From positions 12,928 to 76,927 of the forward strand of contig DFDW01000036.1 of NCBI GenBank assembly GCA_002369315.1: 64,000 nucleotides of DNA, read 5' to 3'. A program made the translations under genes and the position numbers. A model generated the notes under the pieces. The model was given only the letters and a program-made list of their open reading frames with translations. It was not told where the DNA came from and made no database searches. Numbering within the stretch: position 1 is the stretch's first letter; each line of letters opens with the position of its first letter. This document shows, one piece after another, positions 17,754 to 32,900 of the stretch. This stretch comes from Ruminococcaceae bacterium UBA3818 (lineage in GTDB: Bacteria > Bacillota > Clostridia > Oscillospirales > Ruminococcaceae).

Positions 17754-18233
17754 GTGGAAAAGATTGCGAGCTTTACCATCAACCATCTGGACCTGCTGCC
17801 GGGGATCTATGTGTCCCGCAAGGACAAAGCGGGGGAAGCGGTGTTGACCACCTTTGACCTGCGGATGACCAAACCCAACCGGGAACCGGTGATGAACACG
17901 GCGGAACTGCACACCATCGAGCATTTGGGCGCGACTTATCTGCGCAATCATCCGGATTGGGCGGACCGTATCATTTATTTTGGCCCCATGGGCTGCAGGA
18001 CGGGCAATTATCTGATTTTGAACGGAGACTACACCTCCCGGGATGTTTTGCCGCTGGTCACCGGCATGTTTGAGTTTATCCGCGATTTTGAAGGGGAAAT
18101 CCCCGGCGCCGCGGCGAAAGACTGTGGAAACTATCTGGACCAGAATCTCGGTATGGCAAAATGGCAGGCCCAAAAATATCTGGATACCTGCCTGTACTGT
18201 ATTCGGGAAGAAAATCTTGTTTATCCCAAGTAA
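17754..18233 (+). CDS. luxS: S-ribosylhomocysteine lyase
   Basis: FDLRMTKPN...HTIEHLGATYLRN...GCRTGNYLIL (HxxEH metal site plus conserved Cys). GTG start. Confidence 0.9.
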   Translation: MEKIASFTINHLDLLPGIYVSRKDKAGEAVLTTFDLRMTKPNREPVMNTAELHTIEHLGATYLRNHPDWADRIIYFGPMGCRTGNYLILNGDYTSRDVLPLVTGMFEFIRDFEGEIPGAAAKDCGNYLDQNLGMAKWQAQKYLDTCLYCIREENLVYPK

Positions 18234-18242
18234 ATCGGCATG

Positions 18243-18272
18243 AAAAAAGCCCGGCAGCAGCCGGGCTTTTTT
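18243..18272. terminator. Bidirectional terminator between luxS and msrA
   Basis: AAAAAAGCCCGGC agcag CCGGGCTTTTTT. Confidence 0.8.
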
Positions 18273-18795
18273 AATCCTGATAGCGGGACGGATCGACCGT
18301 TTTGACCCAGCGGATCAACTCCAACGGCACATGGCAGTAGCCGCCGGGATTTTTGTCCAGATATTTTTGATGGTATTCTTCCGCTTTCCAGAAGCTTTGC
18401 AAAGGGCAGGCCTCCACCGCCAACGGCTGACCGATTTTTTCTTCCAGCTCCAGCAGGGATTGCGCTATGATTGGTTGATCCGCAGGATCCGTATGATAAA
18501 CGCCGGTCCGGTACTGATGGCCTACGTCTTCCCCTTGCTGATCCACCGAGGTGGGATCGATGATTTTATAAAACAGTTTGAGCAAAACAGGCAGAGAAAG
18601 AACCTGTGGATCATACAGAACGCGGACGGTCTCGGCGTGACCGGTGTTTTCATACCGGACCTGCTGATAAGTCGGCGCATCCACATCGCCGTTGGCAAAA
18701 CCGACATCGGTTTGCAGTACACCTTTGATTTGGCTTATGTATTTCTCAACGCCCCAGTAGCACCCGCCGGCCAGATAGATTTCTTTCGTATCCAT
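18271..18795 (-). CDS. msrA: Peptide-methionine (S)-S-oxide reductase
   Basis: MDTKEIYLAGGCYWGVEKY (GCFWG-type active site). AAGGAGG RBS. Confidence 0.9.
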   Translation of the reverse strand: MDTKEIYLAGGCYWGVEKYISQIKGVLQTDVGFANGDVDAPTYQQVRYENTGHAETVRVLYDPQVLSLPVLLKLFYKIIDPTSVDQQGEDVGHQYRTGVYHTDPADQPIIAQSLLELEEKIGQPLAVEACPLQSFWKAEEYHQKYLDKNPGGYCHVPLELIRWVKTVDPSRYQD

Positions 18796-19099
18796 ACGTC
18801 CTCCTTGCAACGGCCCCGCTTGTTGCCGGACCGGAATCTGTGCTTATTATACCTGTGCGTGCCGTGATCTTGCAAGCGATTTTCGAAAAACCGCTGCCCG
18901 GAAAAAGATGCTGCTGTTTTCATGTGGACGTTTCAGATTGCTCCGAGGCCGGGAAAATATAACCCGATCAAAAGACGGATGCAGGGCAGAAGAATGGAAT
19001 CATATGCCAATCAAAATGCATTTTCTTTCCAGCATACGGATACGGGCCCCAAAATCTCTGCTTTTTCCTCTTTTTATGCGGGTATTTTCCCTATTTTTC

Positions 19100-19128
19100 T
19101 TGCTTTTTTAACAAATTCACGGTATAAA
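19100..19128 (+). promoter_or_regulatory. Candidate sigma-A promoter for the NRPS operon
   Basis: TTGCTT, 17 bp spacer, TATAAA, ~105 nt upstream of the proposed start. Confidence 0.35.
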
Positions 19129-19235
19129 TAAAGGTGGAACTTTATGTGTTTTGCGGAAATAACGGGAATGAACTTTTGAAACAGTGTTTCATCCGAAATA
19201 GGATGAGCATCTGTTTCAGGAGGGTGGAGGATATT

Positions 19236-22200
19236 GTGGCAGAGTGGATGCGTGAGGAAGAGATGTCTTTCCCTTTGTCCCAGAGCCAGAAAAACATCTG
19301 GGATTTGGAGAGAGCGTATTCCGGTACATCGATCAATCACATTACGACATCGGTACGAATTCAAGGGCAGTTTCGGCTGGATCTTCTGCAGGAAAGCATC
19401 CGGCTTCTCTTGGCGTCTGATTTATCGCTTCGTACCCGTATCCGCATGCAGGAAGGACAGCCGGTGCAATTGATTGCGCCGCTGGAGGAAGAACCTATCC
19501 CTGTATTCGACTTTTCCTTGTCGGGACAAGAAGGAGTAACAAGCTGGGCGCAGGCGCTGTCTAAGGAAGCCATGCCTGTTCTGGACGGAGCTTTGTGCCA
19601 TTTTTGGCTTTTTAAGATCGGAGAAAACGACGGCGGCGTATTGATAAAGCTGCACCATCTGATTTCTGATGGCTGGTCCCAGGTCCTTTTGTGCAACAAG
19701 CTGCAAAGGATTTATCTGGAGCTGCTGGCGGGGAATGAGCCGCAGCTGCAGCCTGCGCCGGAATACCGGCTGCATGTCGACGAGGAGCAGCAATATCTGC
19801 AAAGCGACGCCCGGCAAAAGGACGAGGCCTACTGGTCCGGCATACTGGGGCCCAATTGCGAGCCTGCCGCGCTTCGGCAGGTCCACAGCGCGGCGGTCAG
19901 CCCGGTGGGGGAACGCAAAAGATGCCTGTTGCCCAAAAACGTCAGCTATGCGATGATGCGATTTTGCGAACAGCAGAGGATCGCGCCTTTCGCTGTGTTT
20001 TACATGGCGCTTGCCATTTATTTGAAAAAAGCGGTCCGGTTGGAGAATCCGGTGATCGGCGTTCCGGTGTTCAACCGCTCCACCTTTACCGCAAAGCAAA
20101 CTACGGGGATGTTTGTCAGCACCCTTCCTTTCTGGTGCCCCTTGGATGAAACAAAGGGATTTTCCCAGTTCAGCGAGACGTTTACGGAGCATTGGTATGA
20201 TCTGCTGCGGCATCAGCGGCTGCCGTTTGAACAGATCCAGCGGCTGGCGGGCGAGAGAGGAATGGGAGCGGACCGCCTGTTTCAAATCGCGCTGTCTTAT
20301 CAGGATAGCCGGATTTTTACCCAGAAAAGCGATGAGGCCGCTTTTTCCGGCTGCTGGTATTACAGCGGATTTCAGGCAGAGCAGCTGTGCATTCACCTGA
20401 GCAATATGGATGGTGGCCGCCAGTTTTTGGTGGAGTATGACTATCTGACACAGATCTTTTCCGAACAGGAAATTGAGGTGCTGCACCAGTGCCTGACCCG
20501 GATTTTGGATGAGGCATTAAACAATCCCCAGAAGCCTTTGGCGGAATTGGGCATCCTGCCCCGTTCTTTGCAGGATCAGGTGCTGTACGCCTTTAACCAG
20601 ACGGAAAAGCCGCTGCCTGATTTTGACCTTTACGAAAAATTTGCCGCGCAGGTGCAGGCGCATCCGTTACGGTCGGCGGTGATTTTTGACGGACAGCGGA
20701 TCGATTATCAGAACCTGGAAAGCCAGGCCGCCCGTGTTGCCGCGGCACTGGAACATGTGTTGGGAGCACAGCCAAAAGAAGAACCGTTGATTGCCGTGCT
20801 TTTGCCCCGCACGCCGCATCTGTACGAGGCGATGATAGGGGCCATGCGCGCAGGTATGCCGTATTTGCTTCTCGCCTGCGATCTGCCTTCCGGGCGAATC
20901 CGTGAGATTTTATCCCAAAGCGGCGCACAAGCGCTTCTGAGTACGCCGCAGGTGCTGAAGACCCTGGGGTTGGAACCGGTACAGATTCCTTGTATCGATA
21001 TGGAAAATCTGCCGGAAGAAAAAGCGCCGGCGCGCCCTGCGCCGCCGGATTCTCTGGTCTATGTGGTTTATACATCCGGCAGCACAGGTACGCCCAAAGG
21101 GGTTGAAATCAGCCGCCGGAGCCTTTTGAATTTGTCCCAGGCCATGCACCCGGTGTATGCATCCGGCGCGATACTTTCGGTGTGTAGCGTGGGCTTTGAC
21201 GCATTTGTGCTGGAAAGCGCTGCCGCCATGCTGGATGGGCGGACGGTAGTGCTGCCGCAGGAGGAAGAACAGGAATCGCCTCAAAAACTGGCGGAATTGA
21301 TCCGCTCCTTTGGCGTGGGATTTTTGTCGTTGACACCGTCCCGGTTGTCGGCTTTTTTGCGGCAGCCGGATTTTGCTCGGGCAGTGCGTGGGCTGCGCAG
21401 CATTGTCTGCGGCGGCGAAGCGTTCCCGGCAAAACTGCTGCACCGCCTGCAGCAGTTGACCGACGCGCAGATTTATAACCAATACGGTCCTTCGGAAACG
21501 ACGGTGGCAGTCAGCATCAAGCGGTTAAACGAGGCAAAAACCATCACAGTAGGAAAACCGATGGATAACTGTCGGCTGTATGTGTTGGATCAGTGGATGC
21601 AGCCGCTTCCGGTGGGCGTATACGGAGATTTGTATGTGGGTGGTATGTGCGTGGGCCGCGGATACCGCGGCGCGCCGCAGCTGACCGAGCAGAGCTTTTT
21701 CCCCAGCCCCTTTGAAGCGGGCGAGCGGATTTATCGGACCGGTGACCTGGCCTGTTGGACGCAGGACGGCGAACTGCTTTTGGCGGGCCGGATTGACCGT
21801 CAGGTGAAGCTGCGCGGTTTGCGGATCGAACCGCAGGAAGTGGCGGCTCGCCTCGCCGCATATCCGGGGGTAAAAGCGGCGGCCGCAAAAATGCTTGAGC
21901 AAAACGGACAGGGGATCCTGGCCGCCTATTATACATCGGACAAACAGCTGCCGCAAAACGAATTGATGCGGTACATGGGCGAATACCTGCCGCGGTATAT
22001 GGTCCCTTCTTATATCATCCGATTGGAGGAACTTCCTTATACTGCCAGCGGAAAGGTGGATGAAAACCGTCTGCCTGCGCCCCAAATGGAAGAAGAAGGC
22101 TCCTTGCCCAGAACCCAGCGGGAGCAGGAACTGCTGGATATCCTCCGGCGGGCGCTGTCCCAGCCTTCGCTGGGGGCGGACAGCGACTATTTCCTGCATG

Positions 22201-25200
22201 GAGGCAACTCGCTGAACGCCATGGAGGTCATTGGAGAGATCGCCAAAAAAACAGGAAAAAGCATGCGGATCTCGGATTTGTATGTCTGTCGGACGGCGCG
22301 AAGAATTGCTGCTTTCCTGGATGGAGAGCAAGAAGAAACAACAGCGCAGGTATGGATGGAAAAAGCGCCGCCGTGCGACAGCTATCCTGTTTCGCCGGTG
22401 CAGCAGAGCATTTATGTGCAGTCCTGCCGCGAAGAAATCGGCTATGCGTACCACATGCCCGGCGCGTTTGCCTTTTCTGCGCATCCTGATATTCTTCGCC
22501 TGCAGCAAGCGTTCCAGGAGCTGGTTGACCGGGAAGAAATCCTGCGGACATCTTTCCACATGGAAGAGGGCGGGCTGCGCTGCCGTGTCGCCGGGCGGGT
22601 TGCGTTTGACCTGCCTTTGTTGGAAGCCGCTTCGCTGGAGGAAGCGGCCGGCCGTTTCCTGCGCCCGTTTGACCTTGGAAAGGCGCCTCTTTTGCGGGCG
22701 GCGCTTTGGACGGACGAATCGAACCGCTGGTATCTGCTGGTCGACAGCCATCATATCATCGGCGACGGGCTGAGTACGCCGTTGATATTGGAACGGCTGA
22801 ATCTTCTGTATCAGGGGAAAGACCCTCAGATCCCGCAAATGCACTATATCGATTGGACCTATCATCATGCCGGGGAGAAAACATCTCTGCCGGAAGACCG
22901 CCGGTATTGGGGAGAACTGTTATCGCCTTTGCCGGAAGGTCTGGAACTTCCTACCGACTGTCCGCGCCCGCCGGTCTTTGATTTCAAAGGCGGACAGGTG
23001 AAATTTGTGCTGCCTGCACCGTTTAGCGAGGAGTGCGAAAATTTCTGCCGGCAAAAGGGCATTACCCCTTTCATGTTGTTTGTGGCAGCTTACGGCGTAC
23101 TGCTGTCTGCTGTCAGCGGTAAGCAGGATCTGCTGATCGGAACGCCGGTTTCGGGACGTTTGCATCCGCAGCTTCAAAAAATCTGCGGGCCGTTTTTGAA
23201 TACATTGCCGCTGCGGCTGACATTGTCGGAACAGATGCCTTTGCATGCTTTTTGGGAGCAGGTTCGCCGGCAAACGGCGGATTTGCTGGACCATCAGGCC
23301 ATGCCGCTGGAAGAACTGGTGTCGATGCTGGAACTTCCGCGCAGCCTGGCGCAGAACACGCTGTATCAGGCGATGTTTTCCCTGCGCCCTTTGCGGTCCG
23401 ACCGCTTCACCTGGGACGGGCAGGCGCTTTCTTATCACCCGATTCCCACCGGCAGCGCCAAGCTGGATCTGAGCTTGGAAGCCGCCCGGGAAGAGGACGG
23501 ATACCACTTTGTTTTCGAATATGCGTCGAGCCTGTTTGCGCCGCAGACCATTGATTTGTACGCCAGAAGCTATGAAACCATTCTGCGCGCAATGGTGCAG
23601 GGCGCTGCCGAAACGGTGGACGCGCTGCCGAAGCTTTCAGCCCGGGATCGGATGACCTATTGGGAGGAACCCAATCTTTTATCCTCTCCGTATTTGAACC
23701 TGCCGGTACACCGGATGATTGAAAACCGCGCGTTGCTCACCCCGGACGCGATTGCTTATACTTGCCGGGAGCAGTCTGTCACCTATCGTCAGCTGATGGA
23801 GCGGGCCAGGCGGATCGCTGCCTTGCTGACCCGGGCCGGCGCTGCCAAGGGAGACCGGATTGGACTCTGCTGCCGCCGGGAAGAGGGCATTTTCGAAGGT
23901 CTGCTGGGCATTTTGCTTGCGGGCTGCGCGTATGTACCTTTTTTGGAATCGTATCCGGTAAAACGGATTTCTTATATGATGCAGACCGCCGGAGCGAAGA
24001 TCGTTTTGTGCGGGGAATCGGCATGGGACAAACTGTCGGCGGGAAATCTGCCCTGCCGCTGCGTCCGGATGAATTTTAGCGAAGACGCGCCATATCTGCC
24101 CTGCGAAACCGGCGGGGAAGATCTGATGTATGTGCTGTACACCTCCGGCTCCACCGGTCAGCCAAAAGGCGTGATGTTGCGCCATCGGGCACTGTCGAAT
24201 TTGTATGGCAGCATGAAAGAATGGATGGCCGGGCTGGATGGGCCTATCCTCTGCACCACCAACGTGGTGTTTGACACGTTTATCACCGAGAGCCTGCTGC
24301 CGCTGGCCATGGGAATCCCCGTAGTGCTGGCGGATGACGAGCAGATGCTTTTGCCCTGGGAAATTGCGGAGCTGATGAAGCAGTATGCTGTGCGGATGAT
24401 GCAGTTTACCCCCTCCCGTTTGCGGCTTTGCCTGGGCAGCGACGCGTTCTGCGCCGCCGCGCCCGGCTTGGACCGGATCATCCTGGTGGGCGAAACGGTA
24501 AGCGAAGGGCTGTTCCGGGATTTTCGTACCGTCAGCCAAGCGAAAGTACTGAACATGTATGGGCCGACTGAGGCAGCGGTTTATGTAACCGCCGCAGAAT
24601 TGCAGGACGGTGTTCCGGTCCACATTGGCAAACCGCTGCGCAACTGCCGCGTTTATGTGCTGGATGAAAACCGCAGACCGGTCCTGCCCAGCGCACACGG
24701 CGAGCTGTATCTGGCGGGCGACTGCCTGGCAGACGGCTACATCGGCCGGGAGGATCTGACCGCCCAGGCGTTTTTGCCGGACCCGTTTTTCCCCGGAGAA
24801 AAAATGTATCAAAGCGGCGATATCGGCCGCTTGCGCTCAGACGGCAATTTTGATTTTCTGGGGCGTCGGGACGCGCAGGTCAAGATCAACGGCCAACGGG
24901 TAGAGCTGGATGAGATCAGCGAAGCAATTTTGAAGGTCGAACCCATATCCGAAGCGGCGGTACTGCCCTTGAAAAAAGCGGACGGCTCCTCCGAATTACT
25001 GGCCTTTTTCACCTGTGACGGCGAAAACCCGCCCAGCAGCGCGCAGATCAGAGAACGGCTGCAAGAACAGCTGCCCGGCTATATGGTCCCGGCTTCTTAT
25101 CATCGCCTGCCGCAAATGCCCTACACGGCCAGCGGCAAGCTGGATTTGCCGCGGTTGCGGCAGTTGGCGCAGCCGTCCGAACAGGTGGGTTTGGCCGGAG

Positions 25201-26732
25201 AAGAACAAGAACAGAGCCCGCTGAAACCGGCGGGGGAACAGAAAATACAAAAATCGGCGAGCTTGCCGCAGGGCAAACCGGTCGATGCACAGCGAGAACA
25301 GGCACATTCCGGCGAATCCCTCCAGGCGGATGCGCCAAAAGAAAGCCCTGCCGCTGAAAAACCAAGCCAGAACCCGACCGGCGAAAGGGAGCTGCTTCAG
25401 ATTTGGCAGCAGGTGCTGGGCTGCGGTGATCTGCAGCCGGACCGTTCTTTCTTTGAGCAGGGCGGCAGTTCCCTGGCCGCGCTCAATGTGCTCAGCCGCT
25501 ATTTCAACAAAGGATATGCCCTGACGCTGACGCAGTTTTATGCACATCCGACTGCACGGGAGCAGGCCGCATTGTTAAGCGGAGCAGATCAAGCGGGACA
25601 TCATACACCGCTGTCCGTTCGGAAAGAGACGGCCCCGTCCGGCAAAAAGGCCGAATGGCCGCTGGAGGCGGTACTGCTGACCGGCGCGACGGGATTTTTG
25701 GGCACGCATTTGCTGGCGGCGCTGCTGCGGGCCGGCGCGTCCAGGGTGATTTGCCTGATGCGGGACGGCAGCGGCGCGCGGCTGCTGCAGACTCTGTGCG
25801 ATTATTTTGGCTATGGATGGATACAGGAAAATACCTCAAAAATAGAAATCGTCCGCGGGGATGTGACGCTTCCGGGCCTTGGCATGGCGCCGGAAGATTA
25901 TGAATCTCTGGCGGCAGACGTGCGGGATGTGTACCACAGCGCGGCGGATGTGCGCCATTATGCGGCGGATGAAAAGACGTCGCTGGCGGTTAATTTAGGC
26001 GGTACAGAGCAGATGATAGCCTTCGCGAAAAAGGCCAAAGCCCGCCTGCACCACATCTCTACCGCCAGTGTAAGCGGAGAGTACTTGCCGGATTTGCCGG
26101 AATCCTCCGTACAGTTCGATGAGGATGATTTGGATATCGGGCAGAACTGGCAGGATAACGTATATGTAAAGTCCAAATTCCTGGCAGAGCAGCAGATTCA
26201 GCAGGCTGTCCGCAGCGGCCTGGATGCCCGGGTCTACCGGGTAGGCCGGCTGGTGGGGCGTGCCAGCGACGGAATGTTCCAGAAAAATCCGGAGAAAAAT
26301 GCGTTTTTCCTGCTTTTGCAAAGCGTGGCGGCTTTGGGCGCATTGCCGGTTTCCATGGCGGCAGCGCCGGTGGATCTGACGCCGGTGGATGTCTGCGCCG
26401 GGGAAATCGTCGCCCTGCGGGACAGCGGCGGCACGGTCTGGCATTTGCTGGGGCGAACCTATCCGCTGGAAGAAGCGGCCCGGGCGATTTGTCCGCATCT
26501 GACTGTTGTGCCGGATGAAGCATTTCCCGGTATTTTGGCAAAAGGGTTGGAAGAAAAAGGTCCGGCAGCGCTGTCGGCCCTTGTGGACTTGTGGAATCGT
26601 GTCTGTGCAGGACCCGCGATTCGTATTCGGGTAAGCGACGTAAAAACCCGGCGGCAGTTAGCCGCGCTGGGGGTTTCACGGATACAGGCAGAGCCTTCGG
26701 TTTTGCTTCGCGCATTTTGGCAGGATCGGTAA
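19236..26732 (+). CDS. Bimodular non-ribosomal peptide synthetase with terminal thioester reductase (C-A-T-C-A-T-R)
   Basis: Motifs in order. C1: HHLISDGWS. A1: YTSGSTGTPKG, YRTGD, GRIDRQVKLRG, PYTASGKVD. T1: LHGGNSLNAME. C2: HHIIGDGLS. A2: YTSGSTGQPKG, YQSGD, GRRDAQVKINGQR, PYTASGKLD. T2: FFEQGGSSLAAL. R: LLTGATGFLGTHL. Start is uncertain: GTG 19236 behind GGAGG, with in-frame ATGs at 19248 and 19263. Confidence 0.92.
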   Translation: MAEWMREEEMSFPLSQSQKNIWDLERAYSGTSINHITTSVRIQGQFRLDLLQESIRLLLASDLSLRTRIRMQEGQPVQLIAPLEEEPIPVFDFSLSGQEGVTSWAQALSKEAMPVLDGALCHFWLFKIGENDGGVLIKLHHLISDGWSQVLLCNKLQRIYLELLAGNEPQLQPAPEYRLHVDEEQQYLQSDARQKDEAYWSGILGPNCEPAALRQVHSAAVSPVGERKRCLLPKNVSYAMMRFCEQQRIAPFAVFYMALAIYLKKAVRLENPVIGVPVFNRSTFTAKQTTGMFVSTLPFWCPLDETKGFSQFSETFTEHWYDLLRHQRLPFEQIQRLAGERGMGADRLFQIALSYQDSRIFTQKSDEAAFSGCWYYSGFQAEQLCIHLSNMDGGRQFLVEYDYLTQIFSEQEIEVLHQCLTRILDEALNNPQKPLAELGILPRSLQDQVLYAFNQTEKPLPDFDLYEKFAAQVQAHPLRSAVIFDGQRIDYQNLESQAARVAAALEHVLGAQPKEEPLIAVLLPRTPHLYEAMIGAMRAGMPYLLLACDLPSGRIREILSQSGAQALLSTPQVLKTLGLEPVQIPCIDMENLPEEKAPARPAPPDSLVYVVYTSGSTGTPKGVEISRRSLLNLSQAMHPVYASGAILSVCSVGFDAFVLESAAAMLDGRTVVLPQEEEQESPQKLAELIRSFGVGFLSLTPSRLSAFLRQPDFARAVRGLRSIVCGGEAFPAKLLHRLQQLTDAQIYNQYGPSETTVAVSIKRLNEAKTITVGKPMDNCRLYVLDQWMQPLPVGVYGDLYVGGMCVGRGYRGAPQLTEQSFFPSPFEAGERIYRTGDLACWTQDGELLLAGRIDRQVKLRGLRIEPQEVAARLAAYPGVKAAAAKMLEQNGQGILAAYYTSDKQLPQNELMRYMGEYLPRYMVPSYIIRLEELPYTASGKVDENRLPAPQMEEEGSLPRTQREQELLDILRRALSQPSLGADSDYFLHGGNSLNAMEVIGEIAKKTGKSMRISDLYVCRTARRIAAFLDGEQEETTAQVWMEKAPPCDSYPVSPVQQSIYVQSCREEIGYAYHMPGAFAFSAHPDILRLQQAFQELVDREEILRTSFHMEEGGLRCRVAGRVAFDLPLLEAASLEEAAGRFLRPFDLGKAPLLRAALWTDESNRWYLLVDSHHIIGDGLSTPLILERLNLLYQGKDPQIPQMHYIDWTYHHAGEKTSLPEDRRYWGELLSPLPEGLELPTDCPRPPVFDFKGGQVKFVLPAPFSEECENFCRQKGITPFMLFVAAYGVLLSAVSGKQDLLIGTPVSGRLHPQLQKICGPFLNTLPLRLTLSEQMPLHAFWEQVRRQTADLLDHQAMPLEELVSMLELPRSLAQNTLYQAMFSLRPLRSDRFTWDGQALSYHPIPTGSAKLDLSLEAAREEDGYHFVFEYASSLFAPQTIDLYARSYETILRAMVQGAAETVDALPKLSARDRMTYWEEPNLLSSPYLNLPVHRMIENRALLTPDAIAYTCREQSVTYRQLMERARRIAALLTRAGAAKGDRIGLCCRREEGIFEGLLGILLAGCAYVPFLESYPVKRISYMMQTAGAKIVLCGESAWDKLSAGNLPCRCVRMNFSEDAPYLPCETGGEDLMYVLYTSGSTGQPKGVMLRHRALSNLYGSMKEWMAGLDGPILCTTNVVFDTFITESLLPLAMGIPVVLADDEQMLLPWEIAELMKQYAVRMMQFTPSRLRLCLGSDAFCAAAPGLDRIILVGETVSEGLFRDFRTVSQAKVLNMYGPTEAAVYVTAAELQDGVPVHIGKPLRNCRVYVLDENRRPVLPSAHGELYLAGDCLADGYIGREDLTAQAFLPDPFFPGEKMYQSGDIGRLRSDGNFDFLGRRDAQVKINGQRVELDEISEAILKVEPISEAAVLPLKKADGSSELLAFFTCDGENPPSSAQIRERLQEQLPGYMVPASYHRLPQMPYTASGKLDLPRLRQLAQPSEQVGLAGEEQEQSPLKPAGEQKIQKSASLPQGKPVDAQREQAHSGESLQADAPKESPAAEKPSQNPTGERELLQIWQQVLGCGDLQPDRSFFEQGGSSLAALNVLSRYFNKGYALTLTQFYAHPTAREQAALLSGADQAGHHTPLSVRKETAPSGKKAEWPLEAVLLTGATGFLGTHLLAALLRAGASRVICLMRDGSGARLLQTLCDYFGYGWIQENTSKIEIVRGDVTLPGLGMAPEDYESLAADVRDVYHSAADVRHYAADEKTSLAVNLGGTEQMIAFAKKAKARLHHISTASVSGEYLPDLPESSVQFDEDDLDIGQNWQDNVYVKSKFLAEQQIQQAVRSGLDARVYRVGRLVGRASDGMFQKNPEKNAFFLLLQSVAALGALPVSMAAAPVDLTPVDVCAGEIVALRDSGGTVWHLLGRTYPLEEAARAICPHLTVVPDEAFPGILAKGLEEKGPAALSALVDLWNRVCAGPAIRIRVSDVKTRRQLAALGVSRIQAEPSVLLRAFWQDR

Positions 26733-26746
26733 AGGGGGAAAAAAGA

Positions 26747-28630
26747 ATGATTTCCGATTGGGTGGCAACGGTATTTACTGTTATTCTGGTGGCGATAGCG
26801 CTTTTCATTATCTGGAGTCTGAAGATGCGCTATCTTCCGCTGATCCACAAATTATATTTGGGAATCGCGATCTCATTTGGCATTTGGCTGGCGGCACTTT
26901 TGTGTATGAAATACACCGATCCGGCCAACATGAAAATGCTTTGGATATGGGACTCTTTTACCTATATCGGCGTCGCGTTTTCTCCGGCGTTCACCCTTTG
27001 CATCGCTTTGGTATTCACCAAAGGCTGGGAGCGGATGCGCCCTTTGGGATGGGCCACCTTTATCGTGCCGGTGCTGACGAATATCATTGTTTGGACCAAC
27101 CCGATTCATCATCTGCAGTACCGGGTGTTTTCGGTAGTCAAAAGCGAGATCGTGTTCGGCCCTTATATTTATCTTTCCGGCATCTATACCTATTTTTGCC
27201 TGATTGCCGGCATGATCCTGATGATCAGCTTTGCAATCAAAAATGACAGCCGTTTGTATTTAAAGCAATGCGTTCTTTTCTCCCTTGGCGGTCTCGTCCC
27301 CCTGGTAGTCAGCTCGCTTGCGACTTTCGGACCGGCCAGCATTCCAATCACGGCCACGCCCTTGAGCTTCGTGGCAACGGTTGCCTGCAACGGAATCGCC
27401 ATTTACCAGCTGCACCTGCTGGACATCAAGCCAATCGCGACGCAGCATATTCTGGACTGGATTACCGATTGCTATCTGGTGCTCAGTGACGAAGGGCTGG
27501 TCATTACATACAATAAGCCTTTTGAGGAGATTTTTGCCTCCCGTTTTGGCATTTCGGAAAATCATTACCTGTCCGAAAGCGTGCAGGAAGAGGATGTGGA
27601 GAAAAAAAAGGCGGTCTACAATCTGCTGACCGCCATCGAGTCCTGCCGGCAAAGCGAATCCGCCGTCTCCTATGAACAGGCGGTAGGCGTTTATGAAGGG
27701 GACATGTATAAAAAGAATTACTACATTACCGATGTAACGCCGTTAAACATTCACGAAAAGCTTTCCGGCTTCGTGGTCATTTACAAAGACATCACACAGC
27801 TGAAAAAGAGCATGCAGCAGCTGCAGGACAGCCAGACGAGGATGATGGAACAAGAGCGTATGGCTTTTTTGGGACAGATGATGGGCGGCGTGGCGCACAA
27901 CCTGAAAACGCCGATCATGAGCATATCCGGGTGTATTTCCGCCGTGGAAGATCTGGTGGAGGAATGTGCCAGCAGCTTGGGCGACGAAGAGGTAACGGCG
28001 GACGATTACCGGGAGATTTACGCAGAGATGGGCGAATGGTTCCAGCGAATCCGTGAGGCGACCGCTTATATGTCGGACATCATTACAGCGATCAAAGGGC
28101 AGGCTACAACGGCAAATCTTTCTGAGTCGACCGCCTTTACGATTGACGAACTGGTCGGCCGTTCACGGCTTCTGATGCGCCATGAACTGCAAAGCGGCAA
28201 CTGCACGCTGGAGGTGGAAGGCGAAGAGAAAAGCCGGGACATTGTTTTGCACGGGGATATCAACAATCTGGTCCAGGTGCTGAACAACCTGCTGTCCAAC
28301 GCGATCTATGCGCAGAAGCAGTCCGGCGGCGGCGTGATTACAATCGGCATTAAGCAGGATGGAGATTTCCTGAAAATTTATGTCAAAGACACCGGGCCGG
28401 GTGTTAAGCCGCAGGTGAAAAGGCGTTTGTTCAAAGAAATGATCACCAGCAAAGGAACGATGGGTACCGGGCTGGGACTGTATATTTCCAACACCGTGGT
28501 CCGCGGAAAATTCGGCGGAAGCATGTGGGCGGAAGACAATCCGGGCGGCGGCGCGATTTTTGGCATGTCAATTCCCTTATCCGCTGTTTCGGAAGCGCAA
28601 TTCAATGAGAAAGGAGGGAGCAGACAATGA
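26747..28630 (+). CDS. Sensor histidine kinase with N-terminal 7TM sensor module
   Basis: About seven hydrophobic helices. H-box FLGQMMGGVAHNLKTPIMSISG. ATPase motifs NLLSNAIYA, DTGPGV, GTGLGLYIS. ATG lies 14 nt after the NRPS stop. Confidence 0.85.
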   Translation: MISDWVATVFTVILVAIALFIIWSLKMRYLPLIHKLYLGIAISFGIWLAALLCMKYTDPANMKMLWIWDSFTYIGVAFSPAFTLCIALVFTKGWERMRPLGWATFIVPVLTNIIVWTNPIHHLQYRVFSVVKSEIVFGPYIYLSGIYTYFCLIAGMILMISFAIKNDSRLYLKQCVLFSLGGLVPLVVSSLATFGPASIPITATPLSFVATVACNGIAIYQLHLLDIKPIATQHILDWITDCYLVLSDEGLVITYNKPFEEIFASRFGISENHYLSESVQEEDVEKKKAVYNLLTAIESCRQSESAVSYEQAVGVYEGDMYKKNYYITDVTPLNIHEKLSGFVVIYKDITQLKKSMQQLQDSQTRMMEQERMAFLGQMMGGVAHNLKTPIMSISGCISAVEDLVEECASSLGDEEVTADDYREIYAEMGEWFQRIREATAYMSDIITAIKGQATTANLSESTAFTIDELVGRSRLLMRHELQSGNCTLEVEGEEKSRDIVLHGDINNLVQVLNNLLSNAIYAQKQSGGGVITIGIKQDGDFLKIYVKDTGPGVKPQVKRRLFKEMITSKGTMGTGLGLYISNTVVRGKFGGSMWAEDNPGGGAIFGMSIPLSAVSEAQFNEKGGSRQ

Positions 28631-30126
28631 GAAAACACCAAAAAGTAGTGGATATTACCAACAGCTATTCGATTTTGGCTTTGGATGACGATCCTACCAT
28701 GACTTTAACGCTGCAAACCTATTTTCAGCGTTCCGGCTATCACGTAGACGTAGAAAACGATCCCTACAAAGCCATTGAGCGGGTGCGAAACGGCCATTAT
28801 GACATTCTGCTCCTGGACTTTTTGATGACACCGATCTGCGGCGACCAGGTCGTGGAACAGATCCGCAGCTTTAATCAGGATTTGTTTATCATTCTGCTTA
28901 CCGGCCATAAAAGCTTGGCGCCGCCGATCAAAACCATCCGCGATCTGGAAATTCAGGGATATTATGAGAAAAGCGACCGGTTCGACCAATTGGAGCTTCT
29001 GGTGGAGTCCTGCATCAAATCGATCAAGCAGATGCGCACCATCCAAAACTATCAGAAAGGCCTGACGAAAATCACAGAGGACATGCCGCGGATTTACGGC
29101 CTGCGGGAGCGGAAAGAAATTGCGGATAAGCTGCTGCAGACGGCAAAAGATTTGATGGATGGCCAAAGCGTTTATTTGGCGCTTCGGCGGGAAAGCCTTT
29201 TGGACAAATCGGCAGTGGAACCGGACGAACCTTACTTTCTCCGCTCGATGGGAGAGGCGCCTTCTTTGGAAGAGGTAATACAGCTTTCAGAGCGGGTACT
29301 ACGGCAGGAAGCGGTTCAGGAAGATGGGGACTGGGTCGTCGCGCCGATTGTCAATGAAAAAGAGATCGTCGGCTCTCTGGGCGTTCGAATCGAAGGTGCT
29401 CCCCAGTATTACCAGCGCCAATTGTTGGGCATTTTCGCAAGGCAGGCCTCGTCCGCTATCTGGAACGGGATGCTGCAGCGGCTTTTGATTGAGAAAAATG
29501 AAGAACTGGTTAAAGCCAACAACATTCTGCGGGAGAACTACACCCAGATCATCAGCGCCATGCGCCTGCTGGTGGATACAAAAGACATTTATACCCGCGG
29601 CCATTCCGACCGGGTGGCCTATTATGCGGTACGCATTGCCCGTGAAATGGGGAAAGATCAAGCTTTCTGCGAACAGCTGCATGTGGCGGGATTATTCCAT
29701 GACATCGGAAAAATCGGTGTGCCGGACAACATTCTGCTGAAGGATGGGAGACTGACCGAAGAGGAATACGCCAAAATCAAAGAGCACCCGGCCGCCGGCG
29801 CGAAGATCCTTTCTTCGCTGACCCGGTTTCAGCCGATCGTACCCATTATTCGCGCCCATCATGAAAGGATAGACGGAAAAGGTTATCCCGATGGACTCCG
29901 CGGAGCACAGATCCCGCTGGAGGCGAGGATCATCGCGGTAGCGGATTCTTACGACGCAATGACTTCCAACCGGCGTTACCGGTCCAGCCTGGGCGAGGAA
30001 AAAGCCGTCAAAGAGTTGATTGCCGGCAAGGGCAGCCAGTTCGACGGAGAGCTTGTGGATTGGTTCTTGCGGGTTTTGCAGGATAAAGAGACATTGAAAA
30101 AAGATTTGGCTGGTCTGGAAGACTAG
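28627..30126 (+). CDS. Response regulator with receiver, GAF-like linker and HD-GYP (c-di-GMP phosphodiesterase type) output domain
   Basis: REC: LALDDD...ILLLDFLM...LTGHK. HD-GYP: HSDRVAYYA...HDIGKIGVP...EHPAAG...HHERIDGKGYPDGL. Its start overlaps the kinase stop (ATGA). Confidence 0.85.
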   Translation: MRKHQKVVDITNSYSILALDDDPTMTLTLQTYFQRSGYHVDVENDPYKAIERVRNGHYDILLLDFLMTPICGDQVVEQIRSFNQDLFIILLTGHKSLAPPIKTIRDLEIQGYYEKSDRFDQLELLVESCIKSIKQMRTIQNYQKGLTKITEDMPRIYGLRERKEIADKLLQTAKDLMDGQSVYLALRRESLLDKSAVEPDEPYFLRSMGEAPSLEEVIQLSERVLRQEAVQEDGDWVVAPIVNEKEIVGSLGVRIEGAPQYYQRQLLGIFARQASSAIWNGMLQRLLIEKNEELVKANNILRENYTQIISAMRLLVDTKDIYTRGHSDRVAYYAVRIAREMGKDQAFCEQLHVAGLFHDIGKIGVPDNILLKDGRLTEEEYAKIKEHPAAGAKILSSLTRFQPIVPIIRAHHERIDGKGYPDGLRGAQIPLEARIIAVADSYDAMTSNRRYRSSLGEEKAVKELIAGKGSQFDGELVDWFLRVLQDKETLKKDLAGLED

Positions 30127-30184
30127 ATACGGGCTGCTTTTAGCGGACAAAGACCGGAGTTCTTGAAATACAGGAGGAGCAAAT

Positions 30185-31843
30185 ATGAAAAGAGTCCCGT
30201 TGAACAAGGCTGATTATTACGAAACGTTCCCTTCCTATCTGGATGGGATTTCCCGCAAATTCGGGGAGAAACCGGCCATTACTTATTTTACCAGAGCGAA
30301 AGAGCCGGTTACCGCCAGTTATGCGCAGGTGACGCAGCAGGCGCTTTGCGCGGCTCATGCGCTGAAGGCGCGGGGATATGCCGGAAAGCATCTGGCTATT
30401 GTGGCAGAGAACTGCTATGATTGGCTGGTGGCATATTTGGCGATTGCCAGCGCCGGCGCGGCGGCAGTCTGTATCGATGTGGAACAGTCGGATGAGAATA
30501 TTCGCCAAATGATTTCGCAGGCAGACGCCGTGGGTGTGTTTGCTTCCGATACCTATCTGCCGATCTGCCGGCAAACGGAGGAAGAAGCCGCTGCGTGGGA
30601 TTTGTTTTTGCTGGGCGAATCTTCCAAGGAACAGGTGAGCATTCAGGATTTATGCCGTGAGGGGCAGCCTCTGATGGAGCAGAAAGAGAATCGGATTGAC
30701 GGTTTGGCCTGTGACCCTGCGGCAACGGCATCCATTGTTTATACATCGGGTACCACAAGCCTATCCAAACCGGTTATGCTCAGCCATCGGGCGATTTTGT
30801 ATAACGCAGGCGACGCGATTCGGGATGTAGACGCCGGTCCGCGGGTGTTTTCGTCTTTGCCTTTTTACCATTCTTACGGGATGACCGGCGCGGTATTGGA
30901 TACGCTGGTGCGCGGTGCGGAACTTTGCATTAACGGGGATTTAAAAACCATGATGCGGGACTTGTATCTGTCCCAGCCGGACTCTATGATCACCGTTCCG
31001 CTGGTCGTGGAAATGTTGTATAAACAGTTGTGGCTCAGCGCGGAAAAAGAGGGAAAGGCCAAGCAATTGCGAAGCCTTTTAAAGATGTGCAGAATTTTGA
31101 AAAAACTGCATTTGCCGTGGGAAAATAAAACGTTGTCCGATATCCGGCAAAAGATGGTGGGCAGCCTGCATGTCATTGTCAGCGGCGGCGCCCATCTGGA
31201 GAAAAAAATCTGTGAGGATTTTGAGTTATTTGGCATCCAGATCCTGCAAGGATATGGGATCACCGAATGTGCGCCGATGGTATCTACCAACGGCAACAAA
31301 TACTGTAAAATGGGCTCGGTAGGCCTGGTGCTGGATCACTATCAGGTTAAAATCGTAGAAGACGAGATCTGGGTAAAGGGAACGTCTTTGATGAATGGGT
31401 ATTATAAACAGCCCCAGCAGACAAAAGAGGTCATGACCGAAGACGGATGGTTTAAAACCGGAGACTTGGGGTATCTGGACAAGGATGGATTTTTGTATAT
31501 CACCGGGCGGAAAAAGAATCTGATCGTCTTTAAAAACGGGAAGAAGGTTTCGCCGGAAAAGCTGGAAGAACAGCTTCTGAAAATCCCGATGGTGAAAGAG
31601 GTCATGGTGTATGGCGCGGCCAATGGCTCTTCCGCCGATACGGTAGTGGTGGCCGCCAGCATCTATCCGGATCCGGAATTGTCCAAAGGTATGTCTTCCT
31701 ACGAAATTTTAGAGCATCTGCAATCGAAAATCGACCAATTGAATGCAACGCTTCCTTTGTTCCAGCAGATTCAGATGATTACGATTCGGGACCAGGAATT
31801 TACAAAAACAGCGTCGAAAAAAATTAAGCGGCATACGGTTTGA
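30185..31843 (+). CDS. AMP-dependent acyl ligase (fatty acyl-AMP / acyl-CoA ligase family)
   Basis: IVYTSGTTSLSKPVMLSH, QGYGITE, WFKTGDLGYLDKDGFLYITGRKKNLI, C-terminal KIKR. Confidence 0.85.
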   Translation: MKRVPLNKADYYETFPSYLDGISRKFGEKPAITYFTRAKEPVTASYAQVTQQALCAAHALKARGYAGKHLAIVAENCYDWLVAYLAIASAGAAAVCIDVEQSDENIRQMISQADAVGVFASDTYLPICRQTEEEAAAWDLFLLGESSKEQVSIQDLCREGQPLMEQKENRIDGLACDPAATASIVYTSGTTSLSKPVMLSHRAILYNAGDAIRDVDAGPRVFSSLPFYHSYGMTGAVLDTLVRGAELCINGDLKTMMRDLYLSQPDSMITVPLVVEMLYKQLWLSAEKEGKAKQLRSLLKMCRILKKLHLPWENKTLSDIRQKMVGSLHVIVSGGAHLEKKICEDFELFGIQILQGYGITECAPMVSTNGNKYCKMGSVGLVLDHYQVKIVEDEIWVKGTSLMNGYYKQPQQTKEVMTEDGWFKTGDLGYLDKDGFLYITGRKKNLIVFKNGKKVSPEKLEEQLLKIPMVKEVMVYGAANGSSADTVVVAASIYPDPELSKGMSSYEILEHLQSKIDQLNATLPLFQQIQMITIRDQEFTKTASKKIKRHTV

Positions 31844-31984
31844 GTTGGGAGTTCCGCTGCAACAGTGATAGAAAGTGTGCCGGGTGTTGCGGACAGGGAC
31901 TTGCATATTTTGGAAATTTATAGTATAATTTGCGATATGGAATAATCAGGAAATTTGTTGTCGCAAAAGGAGTAAAAAAGCAGT

Positions 31985-32212
31985 ATGTTGGAAATTATCC
32001 AGAAAATCATTTTTGAGGTTACCGGAAAAAGCGAAGTTACGATCGATACCGATTTTGTGCGTGACTTGGAGCTGAACTCTTTTGACGTGATGAATATCGT
32101 GTGTGCTTTTGAAGAATATTTCCAGACGACCATCCCAACCCGCGATGTGTGGAAGCTGCATCAGGTTCGGGATGTCATTGAATACGCGAGAGAACGCGGC
32201 TTGGAGGAATAG
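31985..32212 (+). CDS. Free-standing acyl carrier protein
   Basis: 75-aa acidic protein with a DLELNSFDVMNIV phosphopantetheine-attachment serine context. Confidence 0.8.
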   Translation: MLEIIQKIIFEVTGKSEVTIDTDFVRDLELNSFDVMNIVCAFEEYFQTTIPTRDVWKLHQVRDVIEYARERGLEE

Positions 32213-32216
32213 CCGG

Positions 32217-32765
32217 GTGGCGGAGGTTACGATTTACTGGTACGGCCCGAAACGCCCTTCCTCCCGTCAGTGTTTGGTTCGATGCGCCGCTTTGTTCAGC
32301 GGGGAATCGCCGGAAGGGGCGGAAGCATCCTGGCCAGTGGAGCGGGAGGAACGGGGAAAACCCTTTTTTCCCAACCATCCGCAGGTACACTGTTCGGTTA
32401 CTCACAGCGGCGATTATTGGCTCGGCGCCTTTTGTACCCAGCAGGTGGGAATCGACCTGCAGATCCACAAGCCGGGGCGCCTGGCGGCGTTGTCGCATCG
32501 CTTTTTCCATCCGGAAGAAGACCGCTATCTGCAAAGGGCCGGTTTTGCGGATTTTTACCGGGTCTGGGCGGCGAAAGAGAGTTTTGTCAAGTTTTCTGGA
32601 GAGGGAATCGGCGGGAACTTCGGGCGATTTTCCGTTGCAGGGCAGCAGGGGCTTTTGCCGGAGGTAGATGGGCTGCAGCTCCGATTTGTTCCGTTCCGCT
32701 GCGATTATACGCTGTGCGTGTGCGCGCGGGAAATTTCTTCGGTTTTGCTTTTGCCGGGAAAATGA
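32217..32765 (+). CDS. Sfp-type 4'-phosphopantetheinyl transferase
   Basis: VTHSGDYWLGAF...VGIDLQ and WAAKESFVKFSGEGI motifs. GTG start 4 nt after the ACP stop, behind GGAGGA. Confidence 0.8.
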   Translation: MAEVTIYWYGPKRPSSRQCLVRCAALFSGESPEGAEASWPVEREERGKPFFPNHPQVHCSVTHSGDYWLGAFCTQQVGIDLQIHKPGRLAALSHRFFHPEEDRYLQRAGFADFYRVWAAKESFVKFSGEGIGGNFGRFSVAGQQGLLPEVDGLQLRFVPFRCDYTLCVCAREISSVLLLPGK

Positions 32766-32843
32766 TTCACAATCACAATATCGTTTAACCGCTTACAACG
32801 TGTGAGCGGAATAACAGATTAAGATGTGAGAATAAAAAATGAG

Positions 32844-32875
32844 AAAACCCCGCGTGAATATTCACGCGGGGTTTT
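32844..32875. terminator. Bidirectional terminator closing the NRPS operon
   Basis: AAAACCCCGCGTGAA ta TTCACGCGGGGTTTT. This is the first strong hairpin after 19.1 kb. Confidence 0.85.
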
Positions 32876-32900
32876 CTGACAATGAATCGGGAATAGGATA

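Follow-up and report, generated by a model that had tools for sequence, protein, structure and literature searches.

Positions 19100-32877 of the window, the whole stretch of 64,000 nucleotides that was analysed, probably hold a single six-gene biosynthetic operon of an Oscillospiraceae bacterium, which belongs to the dipeptide-aldehyde NRPS family and would make an N-acyl dipeptide aldehyde. The genes lie on the + strand in the order NRPS, histidine kinase, response regulator, ligase, ACP and PPTase (Table 1). A preliminary description had placed the ligase, ACP and PPTase after the NRPS; they are indeed on the same strand but do not follow it directly, as ~3.4 kb (26747-30126) with the kinase and regulator genes, which had been missed, intervenes. 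It is supported that the operon adds a member to an already known product family of gut Clostridia (Guo 2017/ruminopeptin). The unexplored aspect is the embedded two-component system, which suggests a synthase-plus-receptor cassette resembling Rpf/DSF.

Table 1. Features of the operon and of the NRPS, with positions in the window
Feature	Position	Strand	Description	Basis
Putative operon promoter	19100..19128	+	-35 TTGCTT (19100-19105), 17-nt spacer, -10 TATAAA (19123-19128); presumed function	Read from sequence
NRPS	19236..26732	+	2,498 aa; C1-A1-T1-C2-A2-T2-R	Pfam; homologs
C1 condensation domain	19266..20573	+	aa 11-446; starter-like; active site HHLISDG, aa 140-146	Pfam; scores
A1 adenylation domain	20640..22055	+	aa 469-940; Stachelhaus code DALSVGQVAK	Pfam; code extraction
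T1 carrier domain	22125..22319	+	aa 964-1028; phosphopantetheine-site Ser992 in GGNS	Pfam; alignment
C2 condensation domain	22377..23639	+	aa 1048-1468; LCL type; active site HHIIGDG, aa 1172-1178	TycC6 match; motif
A2 adenylation domain	23721..25139	+	aa 1496-1968; Stachelhaus code DTTQIVMVYK	Pfam; code extraction
T2 carrier domain	25389..25577	+	aa 2052-2114; phosphopantetheine-site Ser2079	Pfam; alignment
R domain	25671..26729	+	aa 2146-2498; terminal SDR-type thioester reductase	NAD_binding_4, 165 bits
Sensor histidine kinase	26747..28630	+	627 aa; 7TM aa 10-229, PAS-like middle, DHp, catalytic domain aa 503-612	HisKA_7TM, 118 bits; HATPase_c, 76 bits; weak HisKA
Response regulator	28627..30126	+	499 aa; REC-DUF3369 (GAF-like)-HD-GYP; predicted cyclic-dinucleotide phosphodiesterase	Pfam; PDB
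ANL-superfamily adenylate-forming ligase	30185..31843	+	552 aa; predicted acyl-starter activation and ACP loading	AMP-binding, 205 bits; AMP-binding_C_3
Free-standing ACP	31985..32212	+	75 aa; Ser32 in LNSFD	PP-binding, 38.6 bits; AcpP-like NCBIfam matches
Sfp-type 4'-phosphopantetheinyl transferase	32217..32765	+	182 aa; GTG start	ACPS, 43.6 bits
Terminator hairpin	32842..32877		16-bp stem, T-runs on both strands; end of operon	Similarity to L001 and L007 stops at 32763-32765

The putative promoter is followed by a leader of ~100 nt. The block TTTTCTTGCTTTTT...GGTATAA upstream of the NRPS gene is common to four related loci (L006, L007, L001 and L003), the flanks of which are otherwise unrelated. 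The intergenic gaps are, in gene order, 14 nt, an overlap, 58 nt, 141 nt and 4 nt; the kinase start lies 14 nt past the NRPS stop codon, and an ATGA overlap joins the kinase stop to the regulator start. Terminator-like sites were absent from all intergenic gaps of the operon, and the only strong hairpin was found at 32842-32877, in agreement with the earlier remark that no terminator occurs until 32844. A promoter-like TTGCAT-17-TATAAT was observed at 31901-31929, within the 141-nt gap ahead of the ACP gene, and because of this gap and sequence the ACP and PPTase genes may also be transcribed separately. Co-expression of the six genes is strongly suggested by the synteny, which is invariant in all informative loci among the 79 species, together with the lack of internal terminators.

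The synteny was followed in 79 GTDB species loci from Oscillospiraceae, Lachnospiraceae, Christensenellaceae, Anaerovoracaceae and C. leptum. The order NRPS-HK-RR-ligase-ACP is kept in every locus with enough downstream DNA, and the PPTase gene, usually next after that of the ACP, was detected in 57 of 71 loci. The flanks vary from locus to locus, and the block conserved with L001 spans exactly 19236-32765. The present source is 96% identical to the Oscillospiraceae MAG LOHA43_bin.028. Its relatives include gut MAGs (human, chicken, goat, sheep and buffalo) and the isolates C. leptum DSM 753, Eisenbergiella tayi and Christensenella, and the same six-gene cassette is found in the HMP-type species Clostridium leptum DSM 753 and Marvinbryantia. 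Spo0A is also encoded within the window.

The NRPS open reading frame extends over 19134-26732 (2,532 aa stop-to-stop), the likely start being the GTG at 19236, which is preceded by the ribosome-binding site AGGAGGGTGGAGGA. The ~2,500-aa protein with C-A-T-C-A-T and an SDR reductase, as read in the preliminary description, was recovered by Pfam in the order Condensation, AMP-binding, PP-binding, Condensation, AMP-binding, PP-binding and NAD_binding_4, with all catalytic motifs intact. The strings quoted there are likewise present: VLLTGATGFLGTHLL at aa 2146-2160, FDAFVLES at aa 654-661 and FDTFITES at aa 1679-1686. A Pro/Glu/Gln-rich linker of ~75 aa lies ahead of T2. At E<1e-50 the protein has 1,788 homologs, of which the top three are 99%, 79% and 71% identical.

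By sequence comparison C2 is a clear LCL domain, with 209.5 bits against the LCL domain TycC6 and only 62 and 36 bits against starter C domains. C1, the classification of which had been left as a check, looks like a starter-type domain, since its similarity to a starter C domain is roughly double that to LCL domains. It gave 204 bits (30% identity) with a reference sequence taken to be the surfactin SrfAA starter C domain, and 95 bits with C2 of the same protein. The PDB scores alone are ambiguous for C1, as LCL-type chains (94-110 bits) rank above the starter domains RzmA (69) and CDA-C1 (65), and in this comparison the contrast between starter and LCL domains is far larger for C2 than for C1. 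The HHxxxDG motif of C1 (H140, H141, D145 and G146) is intact and invariant across 15 aligned homologs, and the active-site motif of C2 is invariant in aligned homologs as well. No carrier domain precedes C1 in cis, and C1 is found at the N-terminus in all 120 homologs.

The Stachelhaus codes of both adenylation domains were obtained as had been proposed, and we know of no canonical code to which either DALSVGQVAK or DTTQIVMVYK corresponds. Both pockets are uncharged, which points to neutral or hydrophobic residues; the codes do not show which amino acids exactly are selected. The A1 code is almost unchanged across 120 homologs. The A2 code is variable in the family (DMGQIGMVYK, DCVELGMVFK, DSGQLGMVYK and others), and that of this NRPS is unlike the code of most relatives. 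As A2 picks the aldehyde-bearing P1 residue and its pocket varies, the specificity appears to diversify at P1.

The ligase was earlier named an acyl-AMP ligase. From its matches it is best called an ANL-family ligase, as it is more like acyl-CoA synthetases and luciferases than FAAL-type enzymes. In NCBIfam and the PDB it is matched best by long-chain acyl-CoA ligases, luciferases and 4CL, and the FAAL 3pbk aligns over residues 393-462 only. Because of this FACS/luciferase-like and not FAAL-like character, the ligase might form an acyl-CoA rather than load the ACP. The PPTase contains the full set of Sfp-type motifs (GKPFF, SVTHSG, GIDLQ and WAAKESFVK), and homologs of 182-183 aa are present in L001 and L003. 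In the daptomycin system, too, a distinct adenylating ligase (DptE) and a free ACP (DptF) are encoded beside the NRPS (DptA), and in surfactin biosynthesis the N-terminal starter C domain of SrfAA acylates the first amino acid. The present system differs from these lipoinitiation systems (SrfAA, DptE/DptF) in the type of its ligase and in its predicted product, which is a dipeptide released by reduction and not a macrocyclic lipopeptide.

The R domain possesses the NAD(P)H motif TGATGFLG at 2149-2156 and the catalytic residues T2276, Y2310 and K2314, so that the Thr/Tyr/Lys triad for which a check had been advised is present. The TGxTGFxG motif and the triad are invariant or nearly so in the 15 aligned homologs. 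Among solved structures the best matches were 6vtj (Mru_0351 PCP-R, 129 bits), AusA-R 4f6c (121 bits) and MxaA (95 bits). Mru_0351 (PDB 6vtj/6vtz), which ranks first among solved structures for the T2-R region in a comparison of its PCP-R part, is a gut/rumen NRPS with terminal R (PMC8024701); unlike here, its host, Methanobrevibacter ruminantium, is an archaeon. As two-electron and four-electron reduction are not predictable from the R-domain sequence (PMC8024701) and the match with MxaA is significant, one may consider a four-electron reduction to the N-acyl dipeptide alcohol, as with myxalamid MxaA and lyngbyatoxin LtxA, in place of a reactive aldehyde. Nevertheless, this appears highly improbable, since AusA-R, which is aldehyde-forming (PMC8024701), scores more than MxaA and the characterised members of the gut family were reported as aldehyde releasers (PMC8518294, PMC12327764).

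For the aldehyde, the following pathway is proposed. The Sfp-type PPTase would prime T1, T2 and the free ACP, and the ANL ligase would adenylate a carboxylic acid and transfer it to the ACP, the most likely substrate being a fatty acid of medium or long chain. The starter-type C1 would then acylate amino acid 1, bound to T1, the LCL-type C2 would couple the acylated amino acid 1 to amino acid 2 on T2, and the SDR-type R domain with NAD(P)H would release the N-acyl dipeptide aldehyde, which would inhibit proteases covalently and reversibly. Our inference from the sequence extends to N-acylation itself, the nature of the acyl group, the two amino acids and the oxidation state of the product (aldehyde rather than alcohol).

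A dimodular NRPS with a terminal reductase is likewise found in the dipeptide-aldehyde/pyrazinone family of gut Clostridia (Donia 2014; Guo et al., Cell 2017; BGC0001686), with (N-acyl) dipeptide aldehyde as the product predicted here; the present species, an uncultured Oscillospiraceae, is different, and the two are likened by published descriptions. Such gut clusters lead to dipeptide aldehydes and pyrazinones inhibiting cathepsins, including the N-acylated N-octanoyl-Met-Phe-H from BGC0001686 and ruminopeptin (PMC8518294, PMC12327764, PMC12282076), which bears out the link that the preliminary description had made. Ruminopeptin (rup) of Ruminococcus bromii (Schneider & Balskus, Tetrahedron 2018), again likened by description, is also an N-acylated dipeptide aldehyde of a gut Clostridia NRPS, namely an N-acyl Leu-Glu aldehyde (PMC12327764, PMC8518294). 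An acidic P1 residue is unlikely in the present case because the A2 pocket is uncharged.

AusA/AusB of Staphylococcus aureus similarly combine a dimodular NRPS that ends in an aldehyde-forming R domain with a small Sfp-type PPTase dedicated to it. The NCBIfam models of AusA and AusB are the best named matches for module 2 and the PPTase, respectively, though far under the equivalog cut-offs (1043 vs 2500; 42 vs 225). Unlike this operon, the aus system has neither an N-terminal C domain (AusA is organized as A-T-C-A-T-R) nor a ligase, an ACP or a two-component system, and the AusA product cyclises to pyrazinones. A comparable outcome here would be the release of a non-acylated dipeptide aldehyde, with C1 idle or skipped without an acyl donor, and its spontaneous cyclisation to a dihydropyrazinone or pyrazinone, cf. 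aureusimines. Many members of the gut family yielded non-acylated pyrazinones in heterologous hosts. Moreover, the products of the gut family were mostly isolated as pyrazinone by-products (PMC12327764). The AusA/AusB matches and the place of AusA-R among the closest solved R domains point in the same direction. We nevertheless regard this outcome as quite unlikely: C1 is starter-like, with an invariant HHxxxDG and an N-terminal position in all homologs, a dedicated ligase and ACP adjoin in all informative loci, and AusA itself has no N-terminal C domain. Taken together, the earlier reading of an N-acyl dipeptide aldehyde is supported, as C1 looks like neither an ordinary LCL nor an inactive domain, the R domain keeps its catalytic residues and the described family members release the same class of product.

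In the kinase, His384 of the DHp domain lies in AHNLKTP, and the N, G1 and G2 boxes fall within aa 503-612. The regulator has intact REC residues (D20/D21, D64, T92 and K115) and intact HD-GYP motifs (H358-D359 and HHERIDGKGYP at 411-421), and its PDB matches are 5z7c V-cGAP3 (134 bits), 4mcw PmGH (119 bits) and 4r8z (110 bits). Of 74 related loci that were scored, 71 retain the HD and HHExxDGxGYP motifs, only the exact GYP-pattern match being missing in the other three. The REC-DUF3369-HD-GYP architecture is that of the RpfY family, described beside the RpfG family (bioRxiv 10.1101/2021.11.05.467447), and the regulator corresponds to the RpfY type in architecture, in the phospho-acceptor D64 and in HD plus HHExxDGxGYP. 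Through kinase and regulator, a signal from the membrane or from outside the cell would control the hydrolysis of c-di-GMP (or 3'3'-cGAMP). Direct action on transcription is not expected, as the regulator lacks a DNA-binding domain. We propose that both genes belong integrally to the operon and are co-transcribed with the others. The embedded HK/HD-GYP pair is not discussed in the literature surveyed on the gut dipeptide-aldehyde NRPS family.

The pair might also be a set of unrelated passengers, i.e., an ordinary environmental two-component system with no tie to the NRPS product. The lack of a DNA-binding output would be consistent with it, as would the fact that neither a c-di-GMP riboswitch nor any other Rfam element was found near the cluster. 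In addition, a co-variation test of the synthase-plus-receptor idea came out negative, as among 32 independent sister pairs the divergence of the kinase sensor (7TM) was not faster upon A2-code change (rho 0.14, p 0.44); a partial Mantel comparison gave r 0.19, a value confounded by clade structure. We consider passengers unlikely, because in all informative loci among the 79 species, which cover several families and an NRPS identity of 40-96%, the pair lies between the NRPS and its accessory genes, accompanies the cassette into unrelated flanks, mobile insertions in feoB among them, and retains its catalytic motifs. Such linkage is hard to keep without a common function.

A layout of synthesis genes, including a fatty-acid ligase, together with a membrane kinase and a REC-HD-GYP protein is shared with the Rpf/DSF system of Xanthomonas (RpfB acyl-CoA ligase, RpfF synthase, RpfC sensor kinase and RpfG REC-HD-GYP). 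The differences are that an NRPS here takes the place of an enoyl-CoA hydratase as the synthase, that the kinase, with its 7TM-PAS input, is of the non-hybrid kind, and that the regulator has an extra DUF3369 (RpfY type). By this analogy, and tentatively, the cassette may be a self-contained, horizontally mobile synthase-plus-receptor module, in which the 7TM-PAS kinase would sense the N-acyl dipeptide aldehyde or a derivative and activate the HD-GYP regulator to lower c-di-GMP. If so, the "protease inhibitor" of gut Clostridia would also, or even mainly, be an autocrine or quorum signal for c-di-GMP-dependent behaviour.

The cluster in the window is, as judged from the limits of its similarity to a relative and from a conserved promoter-like block, a six-gene cassette with its own predicted promoter and terminator. 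Nucleotide similarity to the related locus L001 spans exactly 19236–32765, with none upstream of 19236, and the block TTGCTT-17-TATAAA (19100–19128) is conserved with L001 and three further related loci (L003, L006 and L007). Only one strong hairpin was found, with a 16-bp stem at 32842–32877, in keeping with the first terminator that the preliminary description had placed at 32844; no terminator-like sites were found in the intergenic gaps of the operon. The limits proposed there, 19100–32875, bracket the cassette well. The same description had the NRPS gene followed on the same strand by ligase, ACP and PPTase genes, and the strand and the genes are right, while the ligase is not the next gene: two genes, encoding a histidine kinase and a response regulator, lie between. 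The PPTase start was put at GTG 32217 because the homologs are 182–183 aa long. The 141-nt gap between ligase and ACP genes (31844–31984), which is just 15–40 nt in most distant relatives, holds TTGCAT-17-TATAAT (31901–31929), which may serve the ACP and PPTase genes as an internal promoter.

Features of the cassette and its upstream neighbours (nucleotide positions in the window; aa, residues of the NRPS, from Pfam runs on two halves of the protein)
Feature	Position	Strand	Remark
MATE/MurJ-like transporter	14524–16293	+	upstream neighbour
Class I/II aminotransferase	16411–17652	-	upstream neighbour
msrA	18271–18810	-	upstream neighbour
Condensation (C1)	aa 11–446	+	Pfam
AMP-binding + AMP-binding_C (A1)	aa 469–940	+	Pfam
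PP-binding (T1)	aa 964–1028	+	Pfam
Condensation (C2)	aa 1048–1468	+	Pfam
AMP-binding + AMP-binding_C (A2)	aa 1496–1968	+	Pfam
PP-binding (T2)	aa 2052–2114	+	Pfam
NAD_binding_4 / Epimerase (R)	aa 2146–2388, continuing to C-terminus	+	Pfam
Histidine kinase	26747–28630	+	ATG start, 14 nt past NRPS stop
Response regulator	28627–30126	+	start overlaps kinase stop (ATGA)
AMP-binding ligase	30185–31843	+	domain search
ACP	31985–32212	+	75 aa, Ser32; domain search, sequence reading
PPTase	start GTG 32217	+	182 aa, Sfp-type motifs; domain search, sequence reading

The transporter, aminotransferase and msrA genes are probably outside the cassette; the aminotransferase region (16426–18233) adjoins the cluster in L007 too. 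Four long open reading frames, at 9356–11017 (+), 10268–11491 (-), 11582–12949 (+) and 12988–13557 (+), gave no Pfam match at E≤1e-5. A Spo0A gene at 36538–37323 fits a spore-forming Firmicute.

The same six genes recur as a unit far beyond this genome. At E<1e-50 a database search gave 1,788 homologs of the NRPS, led by proteins with 99%, 79% and 71% identity; those that carry names belong to Oscillospiraceae, Lawsonibacter, Pseudoflavonifractor, Oscillibacter, Ruminococcus and Qiania. Among GTDB species, 177 encode a relative, from which 79 loci were retained; the highest-ranking one, from an Oscillospiraceae MAG (JBJEQT010000170.1), has 96% protein identity and is collinear with window 12324–33461. 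The contig of the 96%-identical MAG carries ~3 kb (L006:1671–4752) missing from the window at ~13989, an indel between near-identical strains. In gene tables of homologs with 71, 58, 50 and 49% NRPS identity, the NRPS gene is followed, in this order, by HisKA_7TM, REC-DUF3369-HD-GYP, AMP-ligase (AMP-binding_C_3), ACP and PPTase genes, and the flanks are entirely different. By tblastn over the 79 species loci, gene order is identical wherever the locus extends far enough. Among 78 extracted loci (the window plus 77 relatives), kinase and regulator were each present in 74, ligase in 72, ACP in 71 and PPTase in 57. Wherever kinase, regulator, ligase or ACP is absent from this set, the contig ends there. 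Some PPTase absences likewise fall at contig ends, and about nine loci with enough downstream DNA gave no PPTase match at the threshold used.

The cassette, together with one or two large serine recombinases, lies inside a split feoB, between its FeoB_N and FeoB_C parts, in at least five related species (L003:8319–26378, L005:4937–25540, L021, L067 and L071), which suggests that it travels on an integrative element targeting feoB. An intact or adjacent feoB was found beside the cassette in four other loci (L012, L024, L026 and L032), and no recombinase adjoins the cassette in the window.

The NRPS open reading frame occupies 19134–26732 on the plus strand (2,532 aa stop to stop). The start was placed at GTG 19236 because the ribosome-binding site AGGAGGGTGGAGGA precedes it and the resulting length, 2,498 aa, agrees with homologs. 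The single protein of ~2,500 aa with C-A-T-C-A-T order and terminal reductase noted in the preliminary description is thereby borne out by the Pfam order, and the sequence strings quoted from it were located in the protein. In an alignment of 15 homologs (45–72% identity), the HHxxxDG motifs of C1 (H140, H141, D145, G146) and C2 (H1172, H1173, D1177, G1178), serines S992 and S2079 of the carrier domains, the core motifs of the A domains and, in the R domain, T2149, G2150, T2152, G2153, F2154, G2156, Y2310 and K2314 are invariant, and T2276 is nearly so; the Thr/Tyr/Lys triad of the R domain (T2276/Y2310/K2314) is accordingly present and conserved. Between A2 and T2, a Pro/Glu/Gln/Ser-rich low-complexity linker of ~75 aa (window 25158–25385, residues ~1975–2050) is variable in length and unalignable among homologs. 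The NRPS gene (20000–26000) has 56–59% G+C against ~48–52% in most other DNA of the window, a lower range that also covers the operon's five downstream genes.

By its scores C2 is an ordinary LCL domain (209.5 bits with TycC6, at most 62 bits with starter domains). C1, to which N-acylation had been assigned in the preliminary description, reaches only 94–110 bits with its best PDB entries, 8xjz being the first, and 69 and 65 bits with the starter domains RzmA and CDA-C1, so that PDB scores alone leave its type ambiguous. With a provisional reference sequence for the surfactin SrfAA starter C domain, C1 reaches 204 bits (30% identity across 435 aa), compared with 92 bits for C2 with the same reference and 95 bits between C1 and C2. 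We therefore regard C1 as starter-like with moderate confidence, a grading set by the provisional SrfAA reference. The ligase is an intact ANL enzyme that most resembles long-chain acyl-CoA synthetases, luciferases and 4CL rather than FAALs; the earlier name of acyl-AMP ligase therefore fits it less closely than was suggested. The best named match of the PPTase is AusB.

The domain order, the intact catalytic residues, the operon-like packing of the genes and their linkage across species were read from the sequence, and a biosynthetic route can be proposed. The PPTase would prime three carrier proteins and the ligase would activate a carboxylic (probably a fatty) acid and load it onto the ACP; C1 would then N-acylate the first residue, C2 would make the dipeptide, and the R domain would release an N-acyl dipeptide aldehyde. 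Should C1 idle, a non-acylated dipeptide aldehyde would be set free and yield a pyrazinone, a decidedly unlikely outcome given that C1, ligase and ACP are all conserved. The R domain is closest to Mru_0351 PCP-R (129 bits) and AusA-R (121 bits), followed by MxaA at 95 bits. Of the NRPS R domains that form aldehydes only AusA-R has a solved structure, the MxaA R domain is alcohol-forming, and R-domain sequence does not yet allow the extent of reduction to be predicted (PMC8024701). Four-electron reduction to an alcohol is thus left room by a sequence that does not fix the extent of reduction; we consider it very improbable.

The aldehyde reading, as first put forward for this operon, agrees with the literature on the family, to which the cluster, set beside the characterised clusters by description only, almost certainly belongs: the dipeptide-aldehyde NRPS of gut Clostridia. 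The product of BGC0001686 is N-octanoyl-Met-Phe-H, ruminopeptin is another reported product, products of the family inhibit cathepsins B, L, C and S, and 47 of its clusters were found in HMP stool samples (PMC8518294, PMC12327764, PMC12282076). AusAB is without C1, ligase, ACP and two-component system, whereas the window cluster has all four; its proposed lipoinitiation logic is that of DptE/DptF/DptA and SrfAA.

Stachelhaus codes were read against GrsA-PheA, the control giving DAWTIAAICK as expected. A1 reads DALSVGQVAK and A2 DTTQIVMVYK. To our knowledge neither is a canonical code, and we therefore conclude only that both pockets are, as read, uncharged. Over 120 homologs the A1 code is almost constant (changes S/A, V/I/L and A/G), and the A2 code is varied, with DMGQIGMVYK, DCVELGMVFK, DSGQLGMVYK and DITQIGLVYK among its forms. 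Since A2 would select P1, the residue bearing the aldehyde, an almost fixed A1 and a variable A2 could help to predict the target proteases of different family members; the acidic pocket residue of DCVE[LM]GMV[FY] may correspond to a basic P1 residue.

The less explored feature is the embedded two-component system. The kinase comprises HisKA_7TM (aa 10–229), a PAS-like middle, an H-box AHNLKTP with His384 and HATPase_c (aa 503–612). The regulator joins REC (D64), DUF3369 and HD-GYP (HDIGK and HHERIDGKGYP), an architecture of the RpfY family (bioRxiv 10.1101/2021.11.05.467447), and among solved structures it matches V-cGAP3, PmGH and PA4781-type phosphodiesterases best. HD and HHExxDGxGYP motifs are retained in 71 of 74 loci scored, the other three wanting only an exact GYP-pattern match. 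As the regulator is without a DNA-binding output, we propose that the pair would turn some signal into hydrolysis of c-di-GMP (or cGAMP). Had a c-di-GMP riboswitch lain upstream, the circuit would feed back on itself; scans against Rfam gave no riboswitch or leader RNA in the window, and no c-di-GMP riboswitch in five related loci, where an unrelated cobalamin riboswitch was the only hit.

Two regulator size classes occur, ~500 aa with DUF3369 (window, L001, L003) and ~350 aa without it (REC-HD-GYP; e.g. L014, L016, L017, L034, L044, L045 and L050), the short class being mostly paired with DCVE[LM]GMV[FY]-type A2 codes. Shortly after the cassette, on the minus strand, comes a gene for a LytTR-type response regulator (33515–34219), and a LytTR regulator with an agr-like HATPase_c_5 kinase lies upstream of the cassette in L004 (2083–4105); their proximity may be coincidence.

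Partial Mantel tests of co-variation gave r=0.19 for HK_7TM and r=0.44 for RR_HDGYP (p=0.001), values confounded by a deep clade split in which the short regulator class tracks the DCVE-type A2 code. With 32 phylogenetically independent nearest pairs, a signal was seen in the A2 domain itself and in no other region, and the Mantel result was dropped as support for the kinase sensing the product; the co-variation tests gave no positive evidence for such sensing. The loss of that signal would suit a two-component system that is a passenger in the operon, which we consider unlikely, since the linkage is invariant over several bacterial families and mobile contexts. This invariance suggests a functional link, within the producer, between the peptide aldehyde and second-messenger signalling. 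The cassette recalls Xanthomonas Rpf/DSF, where signal-synthesis genes including a fatty-acid ligase occur with a sensor kinase and a REC-HD-GYP regulator; that it forms a mobile Rpf-like synthase-plus-receptor unit is an analogy we offer tentatively, as possible but on the doubtful side. No discussion of the embedded system was found in the literature searched, the two primary papers on the family lying outside that search.

The chemistry of dipeptide aldehydes as inhibitors of host cathepsins was established in 2017–2018, and the window cluster is an expected addition to the family. The conserved unit in this clade exceeds the NRPS and its accessory genes: six genes are fixed, with a 7TM kinase and an HD-GYP regulator between NRPS and ligase. 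The linkage yields a testable hypothesis, in which the product would act through the kinase on c-di-GMP, and if the aldehyde is indeed tied to second-messenger signalling, the view of these 'host-directed' metabolites would shift.
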